DNA of 64,000 nucleotides from Candidatus Latescibacterota bacterium (lineage in GTDB: Bacteria; Latescibacterota; UBA2968; GCA-2709665): NCBI GenBank assembly GCA_965219995.1, contig CBDCOX010000002.1:576001-640000 (forward strand), given 5' to 3'. The position numbers were made by a program, and so were the translations under genes. Positions 27,169 to 55,091 of this stretch are shown here, piece after piece (the first letter of the stretch is position 1; each line of letters begins with the position of its first letter). The notes below the pieces were generated by a model. The model was not told the DNA's origin, ran no database searches, and saw nothing but the letters and a program-made list of their open reading frames with translations.

Positions 27169-28374
27169 GTGGGAGAACAAAATCAACACCCGCCCCTGGA
27201 AGGAATGAGGATTGTCTCGGTGGAGCAGTTCGGGGCCGGCCCGTGGGGCACGATGATGCTGGCGGACCTGGGGGCGGAAGTCATCAAGGTCGAGAACCCC
27301 GAGACCCGCGGCGACGTCGCGCGTTACGTGCCGCCATATACCGTCGAGCAGGACAGCCTTTACTTCCAGAGTTTCAACCGGAACAAGAAGAGCATCACGC
27401 TGAATCTGCGGCGCCCGGGGGCCACGGAGGTGCTGCACCGGCTGGTCAGCATTTCGGACGGGGTGTTCAACAACCTGCGCGGAGACCTTCCCGCCCGGCT
27501 CGGGCTCGACTATCCGGCTCTGTGCGAGGTCAAGGCTTCGATCGTGTGCTGCTCCCTCTCCGCGTTCGGGCGCGGCGGACCCCGGGCGGAGGAGCCGGGT
27601 TACGACTATCTGATGCAGGGATATGCGGGCTGGATGAGCCTTGCGGGGGAGCCCGGCGGCCCGCCGACCAAAACCGGACTCTCGCTTGTGGACCTCGCCG
27701 CGGGTACCCTGGCGAGCCTGGGCATGGCGAGCGCGATCTTCCGGGCGAGGCGGACGGGACTTGGGTGCGACGTGGACGTGAATCTGTTCGACACGGCGCT
27801 GGCGCATCTGGGGTACGTGGCGGCGTGGTACCTGACGAAGGGGTATCAGGCGCATCGGACGCCCGATTCATCGCACCCCTCGCAGGTCCCGTCGCAGGTG
27901 GTGCCGACCCGCGACGGATGGCTCGTGATCATGTGCGCAAAGGAGAAGTTCTTTCGAAATCTGGTACACGTGCTGGGAGCGCCGGAACTGGCTGAGGACA
28001 GCCGATTTTCATCGTTCGCGGATCGCCTGGAGAACAGGGAGATTCTGGTTCCGATCCTGAAGGACCGATTCCGCACGAAAACAACCGCCGACTGGCTGGC
28101 GCTGCTCAGGGGCAAGGTGCCCTGCGCCCCCGTGAATACGGTTGCGGAGGCCTTTGCCGACCCGCACGTCGCCGAGAACGACATGATCCTGGATTTGCCG
28201 CATCCGCAATTCGGCGCCGCCCGGGTGGTCGCCAGTCCCGTCAAGGTCGGCGGCGCGTCGGTCCAACACCGGCGAGGGCCCTCATTGGGAGAGCATAACG
28301 GCTCGATTCTGGGCGAGTATCTCGGGTATTCCGACCACGAGATCGAGAAGCTCCGCAGCGACGGCGCCATTTGA
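27169..28374 (+). CDS. Family III CoA-transferase (CaiB/BaiF)
   Basis: AGPWGTMMLADLGAEVIKVE, NRNKKSITLNL, PGYD, PSLGEHN. Confidence 0.92.
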   Translation: MGEQNQHPPLEGMRIVSVEQFGAGPWGTMMLADLGAEVIKVENPETRGDVARYVPPYTVEQDSLYFQSFNRNKKSITLNLRRPGATEVLHRLVSISDGVFNNLRGDLPARLGLDYPALCEVKASIVCCSLSAFGRGGPRAEEPGYDYLMQGYAGWMSLAGEPGGPPTKTGLSLVDLAAGTLASLGMASAIFRARRTGLGCDVDVNLFDTALAHLGYVAAWYLTKGYQAHRTPDSSHPSQVPSQVVPTRDGWLVIMCAKEKFFRNLVHVLGAPELAEDSRFSSFADRLENREILVPILKDRFRTKTTADWLALLRGKVPCAPVNTVAEAFADPHVAENDMILDLPHPQFGAARVVASPVKVGGASVQHRRGPSLGEHNGSILGEYLGYSDHEIEKLRSDGAI

Positions 28375-51707: not shown

Positions 51708-53144
51708 TCAGGTCAGCCCTGGAAACAGGGGCTGGCCTTTTCTGATCTCAACCCTCGAGAAACCGGTTTCGATTCGTTCAGCCGTGCCCGGGAGAAAGGG
51801 TCTCAGGACCCATGAAATGGCGCGGACCGATCCCACCCAGGCCGAGAGGTGTTGTTCGAGCTTCCCGGCCCTTTGCCCTTTCAGAAGTTCCCATGGGCGT
51901 ACCGCGTCGATTTCACGGTTCATGTCGTCCACGCGCCCCCAGACTGTCTTGAGGGCCCCGGCAAAGTCGAAACGGTCCAGCGCGTCCGTCACGTCCGGCG
52001 GAACCCGGAATTCGGGCGTTGCCGCCCGACCGTAACCGCACCTTTCGCAGAGAGATTCGAGCCGTCGCACGAGATTGCCCAGGCCGTTCGCCAGGTCGGT
52101 TCTGTAGATTTGCCGAAGTCCGGCTTCGGAGACGTCACTGTCTCCTCCGGAACGGACGGCGCGCAGGAGGTAGTAGCGGACGGCGTCAGGGCCGTATCGC
52201 CGGATCAGCGGGAATGGATCCACGGCGTTGTCCAGCGACTTGCCGATCTTGCGGCCTTCAACGGTCAGATGGCCGTGGACGAAGACGGCCCGGGGCAGCG
52301 GCAGGCCGGCTGAGAGCAGCATGGCGGGCCAGTAGACGGCGTGGAATTTGAGGATGTCCTTTCCGATGACGTGGACCTTGTCGGGACAGTCACGCCAGTA
52401 GCGTCCGAAATCTCCACTGTCCGAGCCGTAGCCGAGTCCCGTGAGGTAGTTGGTCAGAGCGTCGAACCAGACGTATACGACCTGGGTCGGATCGCCGGGC
52501 ACGGGCACGCCCCAGCCACCGGACCGATTCCGATTGCGGGAAACGCTGAAGTCCCGCAGGCCCTGCCTGATGAACCCCAGCGCTTCGTTTCTCCGCGTTT
52601 CCGGGAGTATCCGAAGCTCCCCGGATGTGATAAGGTCTTCCAGCGCCTCTTGATAGGAGGACAGGCGGAAGAAATAGTTCGTTTCTTCGACGGTCTCGGG
52701 TTCGACACCGTGAACAGGACACCGACCGTCCGAAAGGTCCCGTTCCAGGTAGAAGTCCTCGCATCCCACGCAATACAGACCGCGGTACTGTTTGAGGAAG
52801 ACGTCCTCCTGCCGGCAGGCCGACCAGAATCGGGATGCGCCGAGGACGTGGGTGTCCGTCGAGGAGCGAATGAAGCGGTCGAACGAGATGTCGAGGGCTT
52901 CGGCGAGGTTTTTGAAGACAGCGGCATTCCGCTCGCAGAGTTGACGCGGCTTCAGGCCTTCCCTGGCGGCGGCCTGCACGTTTTTGAATGCATTTTCGTC
53001 GGTCCCGGTCAGGAAGAACGTGTCGTGGCCCAGAAGCCGGCGCCACCTGGCGATCACGTCGGCCTGTACCAGCTCCAGTGCGAAGCCCAGATGGGGGCGG
53101 GCGTTGACGTAAGGGATGGAAGTCGACACATAGGAAGTCTCCAT
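51708..53144 (-). CDS. metG: Methionine--tRNA ligase, short MetRS1-type with divergent motifs (possible second copy)
   Basis: IPYVNARPHLGF (HIGH), TGTDE, CVGC...CPVH knuckle, YVWFDAL, GKDILKFH, KIGKS (KMSKS), LANGLGNL..R; no C-terminal dimerisation/tRNA-binding appendix. Confidence 0.92.
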   Translation of the reverse strand: METSYVSTSIPYVNARPHLGFALELVQADVIARWRRLLGHDTFFLTGTDENAFKNVQAAAREGLKPRQLCERNAAVFKNLAEALDISFDRFIRSSTDTHVLGASRFWSACRQEDVFLKQYRGLYCVGCEDFYLERDLSDGRCPVHGVEPETVEETNYFFRLSSYQEALEDLITSGELRILPETRRNEALGFIRQGLRDFSVSRNRNRSGGWGVPVPGDPTQVVYVWFDALTNYLTGLGYGSDSGDFGRYWRDCPDKVHVIGKDILKFHAVYWPAMLLSAGLPLPRAVFVHGHLTVEGRKIGKSLDNAVDPFPLIRRYGPDAVRYYLLRAVRSGGDSDVSEAGLRQIYRTDLANGLGNLVRRLESLCERCGYGRAATPEFRVPPDVTDALDRFDFAGALKTVWGRVDDMNREIDAVRPWELLKGQRAGKLEQHLSAWVGSVRAISWVLRPFLPGTAERIETGFSRVEIRKGQPLFPGLT

Positions 53145-53164
53145 GGCATGTCCTTTCCAATTGC

Positions 53165-53201
53165 AAAAAAAACCCACCGCCGATGAATCGGCGGTGGGTT
53201 T
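53165..53201 (-). terminator. Intrinsic terminator (attenuator 3:4 helix) in the metG leader
   Basis: mRNA AAACCCACCGCCGA-UUCA-UCGGCGGUGGG-UUUUUUUU ending about 20 nt before the metG start codon. Confidence 0.88.
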
Positions 53202-53229
53202 GTCGGTTCGAATCTACGTGTGATTCAGT

Positions 53230-53388
53230 TCAGGTCAGGGGATGTTTCGCCGCCGAAGTTCCGGAAGTAAAGGTGGCCATCATGTACATGGGAATATCGA
53301 CGGCGCCAGTCCGCGTCGCGTCGTTCGGTACGGCTGAGGATCGCCGGGGTTTTGGCGATCCGTCATTTGAGAATTGAACAGACGTCAT
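53230..53388 (-). CDS. Putative metG attenuator leader peptide (52 aa, internal MYMM)
   Basis: AGGAG RBS, then MTSVQFSNDGSPKPRRSSAVPNDATRTGAVDIPMYMMATFTSGTSAAKHPLT*, between the promoter and the terminator; below the ORF-track cutoff. Confidence 0.72.
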   Translation of the reverse strand: MTSVQFSNDGSPKPRRSSAVPNDATRTGAVDIPMYMMATFTSGTSAAKHPLT

Positions 53389-53415
53389 TCCAGTCTCCTG
53401 TATTCGGTACGAGAG

Positions 53416-53444
53416 AATATAGAATGCGGGCCACGAATTGTCAA
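53416..53444 (-). promoter_or_regulatory. Sigma70 promoter of leader-metG
   Basis: Minus strand TTGACA (53444-53439), 17 nt, TATATT (53421-53416). Confidence 0.75.
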
Positions 53445-53484
53445 GTCCAGTGGGTTTTGTTGTACAGTCATTCTAGGCGACGTC

Positions 53485-53878
53485 AAAAAGCACCTATCGA
53501 AACGTGGTCATTGAGCTTGTCGAAATGCCCGTATTCCGGAATTCCGTCGACACACACGCCGTCTCGTCATGCCCTTCTGGCCGCAAACGTGCCGCCTTCC
53601 AGGCTCGCGATACGTACCAATCACGCAGCCATCAACCGATGCCGCAGTAGATCCTTCGTCGGCCGGCCTGCCAATAATTCTCTGGCAGGCCGGCTTCCTC
53701 AGGATGACAGTTTTGGCAAACGTGTGACTGAACCGTCTCGCTTTATGGATATTGCAAAACCTGTCATTCTGAGCGCAGCGAAGAATCTCCCGTCTTCTCA
53801 ATCGTCCCGGACACAGCAACGCGGGAAACACATTGGCGCGGACACATCACCGGTTTGACGGCCTCCTCATGATGGCAG
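53485..53878. repeat. Diverged dispersed copy of the mosaic REP-like element at 3998-5166
   Basis: Same module order: ATCGAAACGTGGTCATTGAGCTTGTCGAAATGCCCGTAT ... GTAGATCCTTCGTC ... CTCAGGATGACAG ... TGTCATTCTGAGCGCAGCGAAGAATCTCCCGT ... GCGCGGACAC.TCACCGGTTTG. Confidence 0.9.
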
Positions 53879-54041
53879 TCAGATTGCCGATTCTGCATCT
53901 TACCCTTGTCCTTTTCTCGGTATGGGCTTACATTGACGCAGACGGGAAAACCGGCGGCCGGCATCACGGTTTCCCGATTTCGCGCCTCTACAGGGCGTAG
54001 AATTACTCGTGCGAACACCTTGAAGGAATAGGGGACCGCTT

Positions 54042-55091
54042 GTGCTTTATTGGCTGGGAGAACGATTTGCCGATGTGTACGGGCCCTTACGGCTCTTGAC
54101 GTCCTATCTGTTTCTGGCCGTTCTGGGCACGGCGCTGGCGGGGCTTTTTACATGGCGTCTGCTTCCGAGGCTGTGGATGCGGCTGCCCAAAGACCGGGGC
54201 CGCGCGTACGCCGTCGAGAACGAGCAGAGCCACGGCAAGCCCGTTGGCGCGGGCGTGATCTTCATCCCCATCTATCTGGTCGTGTGTTTGCTGATTCTGC
54301 CGCCGGGTTCCCAGTACTGGCAGATTCTGGGCTGTCTGTTTCTCGCCATGCTGGCCGGTTTCCTTGACGATCGAAGTCCGGGAGGATGGGGCGAGTACCG
54401 CGTGGGAGCCATCGACCTGGGCATTTCCCTGCTTGGCGCAATGGTTATCTGCCAGCTGGAGTCCGTCGAGCTCTGGCTGCCGCTGATGAAGACGCCGGTT
54501 CTGGTTCATCCGTGGATATTCGTGCCCGGAGCCGCGCTATTGATCTGGGTTTCAATCAATGCCACCAACTGTACGGATGGCGTGGACGGGCTGTCGGGCA
54601 GCCTGAGCGTCCTCGCCTTTATCTATCTGGGCGTCATTCTATACGGGATTGTGGGGCACACGGACATTGCCAGGTACCTTCTCGTGCCGCACTATCCCGA
54701 TGGCGCGGTGTGGGCGCTGTTCGCATTTGTCATGGCCGGGTGCCTGGCCGGATATCTGTGGTACAACGCCTATCCCAGCGCCGTGATGATGGGAGACGCG
54801 GGGTCCCGGCCGATGGGTTTCCTGCTCGGTATACTCGTTCTTGCGTGCGGCAATCCGTTTCTGATCGTCGTCGTCGCCAGCGTGGTCCTGGTGAACGGGG
54901 CCACGGGATTGTTGAAAGTGGCGCTGCTCCGGTTTCTGAAGATCGGGATCTTCCAGACGGTTCGATATCCGCTTCACGATCACTTCCGGCACAAGAACGG
55001 CTGGTCGAATACGCACGTACTCGTGCGTTTCATTCTGCTCCAGGCGTTCGTGACGCCGATTCTGCTGGTGCTGCTGGTTAAGATACGATAG
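54042..55091 (+). CDS. mraY: Phospho-N-acetylmuramoyl-pentapeptide transferase (divergent, outside a dcw cluster)
   Basis: MLYWL N-terminus, GFLDD, NATNCTDGVDGL, WYNAYPSAVMMGDAGS, PLHDHF; about 10 TM helices. Confidence 0.85.
   Translation: MLYWLGERFADVYGPLRLLTSYLFLAVLGTALAGLFTWRLLPRLWMRLPKDRGRAYAVENEQSHGKPVGAGVIFIPIYLVVCLLILPPGSQYWQILGCLFLAMLAGFLDDRSPGGWGEYRVGAIDLGISLLGAMVICQLESVELWLPLMKTPVLVHPWIFVPGAALLIWVSINATNCTDGVDGLSGSLSVLAFIYLGVILYGIVGHTDIARYLLVPHYPDGAVWALFAFVMAGCLAGYLWYNAYPSAVMMGDAGSRPMGFLLGILVLACGNPFLIVVVASVVLVNGATGLLKVALLRFLKIGIFQTVRYPLHDHFRHKNGWSNTHVLVRFILLQAFVTPILLVLLVKIR

Follow-up and report, generated by a model that had tools for sequence, protein, structure and literature searches.

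According to our analysis, metG2 in this Candidatus Latescibacterota genome is probably controlled by a ribosome-mediated transcription attenuator of the trp/his/pheST type, in which the regulatory codons are methionine codons. The element lies within the window, by which we mean the whole 64,000-nucleotide stretch of DNA that was analyzed, and its parts, their conservation, the selection on its open frame, and its alternative pairings were established from sequence and computation. No published description of a Met-codon leader-peptide attenuator was found in the literature, in keeping with the earlier note on this DNA, which had called such a variant rarely if ever described. Its Met specificity is most likely an addition to the known type of leader attenuator.

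The metG2 locus

The components of the locus are listed in Table 1. The earlier note had described a TTGACA-17-TATATT promoter (53444-53416), an AGGAG ribosome-binding site, a 52-codon open reading frame (ORF) (53388-53230) with an ATG-TAC-ATG-ATG cluster (53289-53278), a segment 1 CGCCGTCGA (53305-53297), a segment 2 TCGGCGGCG (53256-53248), and a 14-bp terminator with U8 ending about 20 nt before metG, and all of these were located at the positions given, with 20 nt separating the terminator U run from the metG2 ATG (53144). The terminator stem (53201-53170) contains 14 pairs, 9 of them G-C, and its U run reaches 53165. The leader promoter matches at 11 of the 12 hexamer positions; among the 14 aligned leaders, the sixth base of the -35 hexamer is A in 10 and T in the rest. 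Between 52500 and 54500, two promoter-like sites were found over both strands, where shuffled sequence predicts 0.6, and the leader promoter is the sole such site on the minus strand. A promoter downstream of the hairpin, a possibility raised in the earlier note, was not detected between the hairpin and metG2, where 20 nt leaves no room for one.

Table 1. Features of the metG2 leader and gene (positions in the window)
Feature	Position	Strand	Remarks
-35 hexamer TTGACA	53439..53444	-	First 5 bases invariant in 14 aligned leaders
-10 hexamer TATATT	53416..53421	-	17-nt spacer from -35; TATCTT in most relatives
Shine-Dalgarno AGGAG of leader ORF	53395..53399	-	6 nt 5' of ATG; GG core invariant in 14 leaders
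Leader ORF MTSVQFS...IPMYMMATFTSGTSAAKHPLT	53230..53388	-	52 codons plus stop
Putative regulatory codon cluster ATG-TAC-ATG-ATG (Met34, Tyr35, Met36, Met37)	53278..53289	-	Codon conservation in 14 leaders
Segment 1 CGCCGUCGA	53297..53305	-	Partner of segment 2; predicted to lie under a ribosome that stalls on the Met codons
Segment 2 UCGGCGGCG, codons S45-A46-A47	53248..53256	-	Partner of segment 1 or segment 3
Segment 3 CCGCCGA	53188..53194	-	Upper 5' arm of terminator; antiterminator partner of segment 2
Intrinsic terminator (segments 3 and 4), U8	53165..53201	-	14-bp stem, 4-nt loop, -25.2 kcal/mol
Shine-Dalgarno GGAAAGGA of metG2	53151..53158	-	Conserved in orthologs
metG2, short MetRS paralog, 478 aa	51708..53144	-	Profile matches and motifs

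The gene that the earlier note called metG does encode a methionyl-tRNA synthetase (MetRS), according to its matches to PF09334 (E 6e-94) and TIGR00398 (395 bits, cut-off 336), but it is a second paralog and not the only metG of the genome. A canonical MetRS of 634 aa, here called metG1, is encoded elsewhere; metG2 is 41% identical to it, carries class I motifs that read HLGF and KIGKS, and has no C-terminal tRNA-binding domain. The H-x-G-F form of the first motif occurs in 59 of the 97 family rows examined. We looked for a Met leader upstream of metG1 and found none.

The organism is known solely as a metagenome-assembled genome. Over the whole window, no match reached the Rfam gathering thresholds, the models for the His, Leu, Thr, and Trp leaders, the T-box, and the SAM riboswitches included. 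Sub-threshold Rfam matches between 52900 and 54200 (mir-4041, NsiR1, rnk_leader, and others, with E up to 10) were dismissed as chance hits driven by hairpins. The minus-strand ORF at 53508-53831 and the spacer at 53445-53890, which have no Pfam match and are poorly conserved in relatives, were set aside as parts of the element, and an ARAGORN 'tRNA-???' at 27983-28068, with no Rfam tRNA match at gathering score, is probably a false call.

Distribution of Met-codon leaders

Conservation of the leader in orthologous loci, proposed as a check in the earlier note, was found throughout the genus: the leader ORF and its Met cluster are kept beside metG2, once per genome, in 14 of the 15 genomes searched (G000 and 13 others), where a covariance model built from the leader gave a single strong match per genome (E 1e-28 to 1e-39). 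G001 alone gave no leader match with this model; it also lacks metG2, its best MetRS match being of the metG1 type only. No further copies of the leader were found elsewhere in the G000 genome. A genome-wide scan of G000 yielded 1585 terminator-like sites, 684 of them with a long ORF downstream, and only two sites in the genome are preceded by a small ORF with at least three Met in five codons. The second of these resembles the C-terminus of a real protein, and the metG2 leader is the only real Met-cluster small ORF beside a terminator in the G000 genome.

Met clusters also recur outside the set of aligned leaders. Upstream of the metG2 of G016 lies an unlike leader (..SSMGMPMSMRD..) with its own terminator. 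When Met-cluster upstream ORFs (uORFs) were defined as small sense-strand uORFs with at least three Met in six codons, 14 of the 68 short-MetRS loci outside Latescibacterota had one, compared with 2 on the antisense strand, 0 for Trp clusters, and a mean of 0.17 (maximum 2) in shuffles. Met clusters are thus about 80-fold enriched over shuffles before homologous MetRS genes, whereas Trp clusters are not enriched. A strong terminator lies directly 5' of metG in 8 of these 14 loci. What the leaders of G016 and the other phyla have in common is the Met cluster and the terminator; their peptides and sequences are unrelated.

Leaders with cognate codons accompany other synthetase genes of the lineage as well. 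The trpS gene of G000 is preceded by a WWW leader and a terminator, and in genomes of the same class an Ile-rich leader lies upstream of ileS and Thr-rich leaders upstream of thrS. No cognate leader was found in G000 before three tRNA-synt_1 (PF00133) and three tRNA-synt_2b (PF00587) genes, which we take to be ileS, valS, leuS, proS, serS, and hisS. Some relatives have a second ('type-2') Met uORF, with a predicted hairpin that hides the Shine-Dalgarno (SD) sequence and AUG of metG2; this type-2 uORF is absent from the window.

On balance we lean toward regarding the leader as one member of a broad class, for which no published account was found, of Met-codon attenuators placed on auxiliary short MetRS genes of the H-x-G-F form; together these would constitute a conserved 'back-up MetRS on demand' circuit. 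Some Latescibacterota would have this circuit in doubled form, a transcriptional Met attenuator being followed by a uORF whose Met codons pair with the SD and AUG of metG2, that is, by translational attenuation. The phyla that pair a short with a canonical MetRS are, as labelled in database records, Latescibacterota, Planctomycetota, Chloroflexota, Verrucomicrobiota, Myxococcota, Gammaproteobacteria, and Actinomycetota.

The leader reading frame

The SD, the ATG, and the open frame are conserved across the leaders. Over the 52 codons of the 14 orthologous leaders, frames 0, +1, and +2 contain 1, 46, and 10 stops, respectively; the leader frame is open in 13 of them, and the remaining one stops two codons early. 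The ORF has 52 codons in 13 of the 14, and codons 1-44 are free of indels. Pairwise identity in codons 2-31 is 0.65/0.63/0.61 at positions 1/2/3, which amounts to no codon periodicity, as compared with 0.87/0.91/0.69 in the metG2 coding sequence. Since the frame is kept open in a stretch lacking such periodicity, the frame matters and the N-terminal residues do not; selection maintains an open leader frame without constraining the first 31 residues. Within the cluster, ATG is kept without exception at codons 34 and 36 (Met34 and Met36) and, at codon 37, in 13 of the 14 leaders, while codon 35 encodes Y, C, or R and varies at all three positions; leader G010 has two cluster Met codons rather than three. 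The GCGGCG of segment 2 is invariant in all 14 leaders, synonymous third codon positions included. For its class the leader is long, with 52 codons and just three Met codons.

Nascent-peptide arrest, known from TnaC with Trp and from plant CGS1 with SAM, offers another explanation, in which the conserved C-terminal stretch (..I-S-M-C-M-M-S-S-F-S..G.PAAEHP..) would sense free Met or SAM and stall the ribosome; the element would still be a ribosome-dependent attenuator. Such a role would fit the greater conservation of codons 32-52 over codons 2-31, the conservative nature of some replacements there (S/A, S/T, F/I), and a leader much longer than the usual codon-counting ones. However, identity in codons 32-52 is 0.72/0.85/0.78 at positions 1/2/3, and third positions as conserved as the first point to constraint at the RNA level; the conserved stretch also overlaps the paired segments. 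Moreover, it is the Met cluster and terminator, not the peptide, that the leaders of G016 and other phyla share, and codon sensing is favoured by the cognate-codon leaders that the lineage has at trpS, ileS, and thrS. We deem peptide arrest improbable, while the conserved last 20 residues of the leader may have a role at the peptide level.

A slightly lower probability is assigned to the unit being a separate small gene, for a 52-aa protein or a small RNA (sRNA), with metG2 depending on constitutive leakage past the terminator or on a promoter that went unrecognised. The unit does have its own strong promoter and strong terminator, the length of the ORF is conserved, and there are weak sub-threshold Rfam matches to terminator-bearing sRNAs (NsiR1, E 0.09), to the hairpin alone. 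A protein-coding gene is, however, at odds with the missing codon periodicity of the first 31 codons and with a peptide that has no Pfam match, and an independent unit would hardly be expected only beside metG2, missing where metG2 is missing, and with just 20 nt between its terminator and the metG2 ATG. The recurrence of the Met cluster in unrelated leaders before homologous genes likewise speaks for an attenuator of metG2.

Alternative pairings and proposed mechanism

The minimum-free-energy fold of the leader (-88 kcal/mol, z -4.6) contains both the segment 1:segment 2 helix and the terminator. The 1:2 duplex (-17.8 kcal/mol) was equalled by 45 of 2000 shuffles and the 2:3 duplex (-14.7 kcal/mol) by 13 of 2000. 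Regarding the first, the pairing put forward in the earlier note is present in this fold, but most relatives use a register shifted by 3 nt, together with an inner helix that contains the Met codons; when free, the 1:2 region of the leaders folds at -18 to -29 kcal/mol. The RNAalifold consensus shows a different 1:2-type helix, in which the Met codons and the SS codons pair with the GGAGCAUC tract, and this is an alternative register, not a contradiction. The terminator is conserved in all 14 leaders, with 97.8% of cells paired. As for covarying helices, for which the earlier note had suggested looking, the helices are conserved but their covariation is weak: both partners differ in three pairs, a count attained in 48 of 500 shuffles. 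The helices are backed mostly by conservation among close kin, so that 14 of 14 leaders does not amount to 14 independent tests.

Segment 1 ends 7 nt 5' of the first Met codon, and segment 2 starts 22 nt past the last one in 13 of the 14 leaders and 21 nt past it in one, so that, given the known size of the ribosome footprint, a ribosome stalled on the cluster would cover segment 1 and not segment 2. When whole leaders were folded under a ribosome mask, the long-range partners of segment 3 were inconsistent in several relatives; these global folds were replaced with local ones, limited to the RNA that lies 3' of a ribosome set on the Met cluster, with segment 4 not yet transcribed. In these stall folds all 14 leaders form the antiterminator that the earlier note had drawn between segment 2 and segment 3 (CCGCCGA). 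Mutually exclusive 1:2, 2:3, and 3:4 pairings, by which an attenuator is recognised, were thus found computationally. At equilibrium, the terminator (-25 kcal/mol) still beats the antiterminator (-14.7 kcal/mol) even when the ribosome mask is applied, and read-through must therefore be kinetic.

The Met-sensing attenuator proposed in the earlier note is supported by the conserved ORF, Met cluster, segment 2, and terminator, by the open frame, by the 2:3 folds, and by the unrelated Met-cluster leaders. From these we infer leader translation, stalling, a kinetic competition, and a physiological signal, as follows. Transcription would start at about 53409 from the sigma-70-like promoter, and a ribosome would translate the 52-codon leader. 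With charged elongator Met-tRNA plentiful, the ribosome would pass M34-Y-M36-M37 and reach the stop codon, segments 1 and 2 would pair, the 3:4 terminator would form, and the transcript would end 20 nt before metG2. With Met-tRNA(Met) scarce, through Met limitation or a failing MetRS1, it would stall on the Met cluster and cover segment 1; segment 2, 22 nt past the stall, would stay free and pair with segment 3 once this is transcribed and before segment 4 exists, thereby blocking the terminator and allowing transcription of metG2. One argument against this mechanism is that initiation, which uses fMet-tRNA, should likewise slow down when Met-tRNA is short, and this would favour termination.

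Least probable of all is that leader translation reports a general slowdown of translation (as in ermC or cat leaders) or shields the transcript from Rho and that the Met codons are incidental. A ribosome halted around codons 34-37 for whatever reason would leave segment 2 free, and the models are blind to the cause; yet the ATG codons are invariant while the neighbouring codon drifts, the roughly 80-fold excess before homologous MetRS genes concerns Met and not Trp clusters, and the match of Met with MetRS repeats that of Trp with trpS, Ile with ileS, and Thr with thrS.

Relation to known systems and significance

Leader-peptide attenuation is textbook knowledge for Trp, His, Leu, Thr, Ile/Val, and Phe, and methionine control is usually ascribed to SAM riboswitches, T-boxes, or MetJ/MetR. 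With the attenuators of the trp/his/leu/thr/ilv/pheA type in Proteobacteria and Actinobacteria, of which we know of none described for methionine, the metG2 leader shares the four-segment logic and regulatory codons beside or inside segment 1, whereas those attenuators govern biosynthetic operons. A parallel in gene context is E. coli pheM-pheST, where a short translated leader of 14 codons, rich in Phe codons, and an intrinsic terminator directly precede the synthetase gene. Both have a cognate-codon leader and terminator before a synthetase gene, 1:2, 2:3, and 3:4 alternatives, and the sensing of charged tRNA through ribosome speed, which for metG2 is our proposal. The metG2 leader differs in its Met instead of Phe codons, its 52 instead of 14 codons, its placement on an auxiliary paralog instead of the housekeeping enzyme, and its phylum, and no similarity to pheM-pheST was found by sequence or Rfam model.

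T-boxes control back-up synthetases, such as thrZ and tyrZ of B. subtilis and the inducible IleRS2 of Bacilli. The arrangement proposed here is alike in that a drop in charging of the cognate tRNA would induce a second copy; unlike T-box systems, in which uncharged tRNA binds the RNA, metG2 has no T-box match and its sensor would be the translating ribosome. The type-2 Met uORF of the relatives resembles translational attenuation of the ermC type in that a stalled ribosome would melt the hairpin over the SD and AUG, except that stalling would be triggered by Met codons and not by an antibiotic.

A comparative-genomics study predicted His-codon leader peptides before duplicated hisS paralogs in Bacilli (Naville and Gautheret 2010, PMC2965389). 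As far as the passages cited here go, these resemble the metG2 leader as cognate-codon leaders on a duplicated aminoacyl-tRNA synthetase (aaRS) paralog outside Proteobacteria and Actinobacteria (PMC2965389), and they differ in amino acid (His versus Met), in phylum (Firmicutes versus Latescibacterota), and in their unrelated sequences. A study of Actinobacteria reported attenuators of the classical kind upstream of aaRS genes, along with regulatory elements for the genes of Trp, Cys, and the branched-chain amino acids, and in the portion that concerns us it saw no conserved RNA structure at methionine operons (PMC1262725).

A Met-reading attenuator would add an amino acid specificity to leader-peptide attenuation, and it raises the question of how a leader whose initiation depends on fMet-tRNA reports a shortage of Met-tRNA. 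It also means that in Latescibacterota, an uncultured phylum, cognate-codon leaders occur at several synthetase genes (metG2, trpS, ileS, and thrS). The recurrence of a regulated two-MetRS arrangement across phyla suggests that the short MetRS serves under particular conditions, for example, as a back-up when Met is limiting or when inhibition or damage affects the main enzyme.

Anatomy of the metG2 leader

Our analysis supports the earlier note's reading of this element as a Met-sensing attenuator: judging from the sequence and from modeled RNA folds, it is quite probably a ribosome-mediated, Met-codon-sensing transcription attenuator of the auxiliary MetRS gene metG2. The promoter, AGGAG motif, 52-codon ORF, Met cluster, RNA segments, hairpin, and metG start that the note had described were all recovered at the coordinates it claimed, including the 14-bp terminator with its U run before metG. 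The promoter matches the consensus at 11 of 12 positions and is the sole promoter-like site that a consensus scan detected on the minus strand between 52500 and 54500. For the free leader, the predicted fold has an energy of -88 kcal/mol (z -4.6) and contains both the seg1:seg2 helix and the terminator.

Upstream of the leader promoter, approximately 600 nt (53445-54041) extend to the divergent glycosyltransferase family 4 (GT4) gene without any Pfam-matching ORF; this stretch is poorly conserved in relatives, except for about 150 nt beside the GT4 gene. Elsewhere in the window, ARAGORN reports a "tRNA-???" of 86 nt, its anticodon only two bases long, at 27983-28068 (+); this is probably a false call, as nothing there matches an Rfam tRNA model at the gathering score.

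Features of the metG2 leader in the window and of related leaders in this and other genomes (G, genome; L, locus; G000, genome containing the window)
Feature	Position	Strand	Basis or remark
-35 TTGACA	53444-53439	-	Read in sequence
-10 TATATT, after a 17-nt spacer	53421-53416	-	Read in sequence
Leader SD AGGAG	53399-53395	-	Read in sequence
Leader ORF, 52 codons	ATG at 53388, TGA at 53232-53230	-	ORF list
seg1 CGCCGTCGA	53305-53297	-	
Met cluster ATG-TAC-ATG-ATG	53289-53278	-	
seg2 TCGGCGGCG	53256-53248	-	
Terminator hairpin	53201-53170, U run to 53165	-	14-pair terminator in consensus scan
metG2 SD GGAAAGGA	53158-53151	-	
metG2 ATG	53144	-	
GT4 gene	54042-55091	divergent from leader promoter	PF00953
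Type-2 uORF	about 135 nt before metG2 start		L006, L007, L021, L018, L019
G016 leader	about -315 to -105 before metG2 (L020)		Own terminator GGGCCCGCTG...CAGCGGGCC and U run, about 100 nt before metG2
Trp leader ..GCWWWH.., 25 codons	L162:1182-1259 = G000:C2:3706281-3706358	-	Directly before trpS (TIGR00233)
His-rich leader ..AHTAHHHTHH.., 47 codons	L163:93-236 = G000:C2:3794292-3794435	+	Before methyltransferase-like gene
Ile-rich leader ..SIIIEIIAAIIAI.. and terminator	before ileS		Same-class genomes, L134 (G141), L135 (G092), L136 (G084)
Thr-rich leaders ..TTWTTTTPPTGT.. and ..PTTATTPTT.. and terminator	before thrS		Same-class genomes, L134-L136

Pairing and energetics of the predicted switch

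Both of the alternative pairings of seg2 that the earlier note proposed are supported by the computed energies. With seg1 it forms, in the free-leader fold, a helix of 9 pairs with a duplex energy of -17.8 kcal/mol (reached by 45 of 2,000 shuffles), while with CCGCCGA in the 5' arm of the terminator (seg3) it reaches -14.7 kcal/mol (13 of 2,000 shuffles); the terminator itself stands at -25.2 kcal/mol. When the RNA 3' of a ribosome on the Met cluster was folded locally up to the terminator loop, with seg4 not yet made, seg2 paired with seg3 in all 14 leaders of the genus. A gap of 7 nt separates the end of seg1 from the first Met codon, and seg2 starts 22 nt after the last one in the window and in 13 of the 14 leaders, the distance being 21 nt in one.

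Given the usual ribosome footprint, a ribosome stalled at the Met cluster hides seg1 and leaves seg2 free, and this is the state that we propose would arise on stalling. At equilibrium the terminator wins even under the ribosome mask, so that antitermination would have to be kinetic, as it is in classical attenuators. The leader stop codon lies 15 nt past seg2; a ribosome that has completed the leader would free seg2 to re-pair with seg1, and termination would then be favored.

The outer 1:2 helix of most relatives pairs 3 nt out of the window's register (CGCCGCG:CGCGGCG), and an inner helix, GAUGUCC:GGACAUC, includes the last Met codons. The check for covarying helices that the earlier note had suggested showed conserved pairing but weak covariation: 91.8% of alignment cells are paired in the terminated structure versus at most 51% with the partners slid, and only 3 pairs are altered on both sides, a number reached by 48 of 500 shuffles in an alignment of 14 sequences that are close kin. 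Support for the structure thus comes from conservation and energetics rather than from strong covariation.

Conservation of the leader within the genus and phylum

Of the 14 other genomes in this genus, 13 carry a metG2 ortholog with 60 to 90% identity, and such orthologs also extend to three further genera of the family. Comparison of the regions upstream of the 14 genus copies, that of G000 included, showed that promoter, SD, 52-codon frame, Met cluster, and terminator are all kept, with a terminator-to-metG2 gap longer by 110 to 330 nt in three leaders (G010, G013, and G012). A covariance model built on the 3' 146 nt of the leader and searched in 151 genomes of the phylum returned one strong match per genome, always adjoining metG2, in G000 and 13 of the 14 genus genomes; it gave no strong match in G001, whose only MetRS is of the canonical metG1 type, and no further leader copy anywhere else in G000.

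Over 14 x 52 codons, frame 0 contains a single stop, versus 46 and 10 in the other frames, and codons 1 to 44 of the 14 aligned leaders are free of indels. Pairwise identity at positions 1/2/3 of codons 2 to 31 is 0.65/0.63/0.61, versus 0.87/0.91/0.69 in the metG2 CDS, and in two relatives the N-terminal leader peptide is wholly different at the same length; the first 31 codons show no protein-type selection. From codon 32, all three positions are conserved (0.72/0.85/0.78). ATG34 and ATG36 of the Met cluster are invariant and ATG37 is kept in 13 of 14 leaders, while the codon between drifts (Y, C, or R), and seg2 keeps GCG-GCG unchanged in all 14, even at third positions. Such a pattern is what one expects of a translated leader in which the Met codons and RNA segments, not the peptide, matter.

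metG2 and the second MetRS

Located at 51708-53144 on the minus strand, metG2 encodes a product (478 aa in the ORF list) that matches PF09334 with an E value of 6e-94 and passes the NCBIfam metG model at 395 bits versus a cut-off of 336. Two MetRS genes are carried by the 5.4-Mb genome G000, short metG2 and metG1 (634 aa), which are 41% identical. metG1 has a C-terminal tRNA-binding domain (TIGR00399) and sits after a 365-aa ORF; a Met-rich leader was looked for before it and none was found. The HIGH and KMSKS motifs of metG2 read HLGF and KIGKS, respectively; since H-x-G-F was seen in 59 of the 97 short-MetRS family rows tabulated, spread over many phyla, we regard it as a trait of the family rather than a lesion.

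At 52390-53166 (-), an alternative frame of 258 codons runs open through the metG2 start; the type-2 uORF of relatives enters this very frame, which is probably a side effect of coding sequence rich in G+C. In G012, the metG2 match (L021, G012:C5:1245474-1246908) is split, with residues 1-137 in one frame and 137-478 in another, behind an intact leader; the break is a frameshift or an assembly error.

Met-codon leaders in other lineages

The Met-rich leader of G016, ..SSMGMPMSMRD.., is a different one, with 4 Met in 7 codons, and its terminator differs too; the metG2 of this genome is 60% identical. The survey upstream of homologous short metG genes that the earlier note had recommended started from 80 loci of species-representative genomes, of which we kept the 68 outside Latescibacterota with at least 300 nt upstream, leaving out 9 Latescibacterota loci, those with shorter flanks, and L083, which begins at a contig end. 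At 14 of these 68 loci, a small uORF on the sense strand carries 3 or more Met within 6 codons. In 200 mononucleotide shuffles of the upstream regions, such loci numbered 0.17 on average and at most 2; controls at the same loci gave 2 for antisense and 0 for Trp clusters. By record title, the 14 loci belong to Planctomycetota, Chloroflexota, Myxococcota, Verrucomicrobiota, Gammaproteobacteria, and Actinomycetota, and 8 of them have a strong hairpin with a U run directly before metG. A canonical full-length MetRS is also encoded in all five genomes checked, where the putatively leader-controlled short MetRS is again the second copy.

A second Met-codon uORF in relatives

A second small frame, ..SHS.GGI.YM[RC]MS.., with its own SD and start codon, sits between terminator and metG2 in G010 and G013 and follows a longer gap in G012, standing in tandem with the transcriptional attenuator in three genomes; in G017 and G015, from other genera, it is present without the first leader. 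The window lacks this type-2 uORF; there, the terminator directly adjoins the metG2 SD. Its Met codons and the codons following them pair with the metG2 SD and AUG in five of five MFE folds, and the frame crosses the metG2 start out of register for more than 100 nt. By analogy with ermC, in the pairing of its Met codons with the SD/AUG, it looks like a candidate translational attenuator read by Met codons.

Cognate-codon leaders of other synthetases

We scanned G000 for small ORFs that contain an amino-acid cluster and end at a terminator followed by a long ORF (1,585 terminator-like sites, 684 with a downstream ORF), and the sole convincing Met case was the metG2 leader. The scan also returned the ..GCWWWH.. 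leader, which comes with a TTGACA-type promoter and an intrinsic terminator of its own, a unit that we interpret as a Trp leader-peptide attenuator of the synthetase gene trpS. It likewise returned a His-type leader, which stands before a non-his gene, with a terminator of -22.7 kcal/mol and a 240-aa SAM-methyltransferase-like product (PF13649) encoded next. No cognate leader was seen before six other synthetase genes of G000 (PF00133, PF00587), which we take to be ileS, valS, leuS, proS, serS, and hisS. Weak covariance-model matches in another family of the class proved to be different leaders, one Ile-rich and two Thr-rich, whose terminators have, like that of metG2, a 5' arm of the CCCAC[CT]G[CT]CG type.

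Relation to published attenuators

Full-text searches, in a literature set covering a minority of subscription journals, turned up no account of a leader attenuator reading Met codons, nor of metG being controlled by a leader peptide. Passages of PMC1262725 report classical attenuators before some aaRS genes and no conserved RNA structure in methionine operons of Actinobacteria, and the excerpts of PMC4833913 leave methionine unmentioned. The closest published parallel found is in PMC2965389, which describes leader peptides of the His type upstream of hisS paralogs of Bacilli. The proposed mechanism is classical; the Met specificity, the back-up MetRS paralog as target, the phylum, and the long neutral N terminus of the leader are not.
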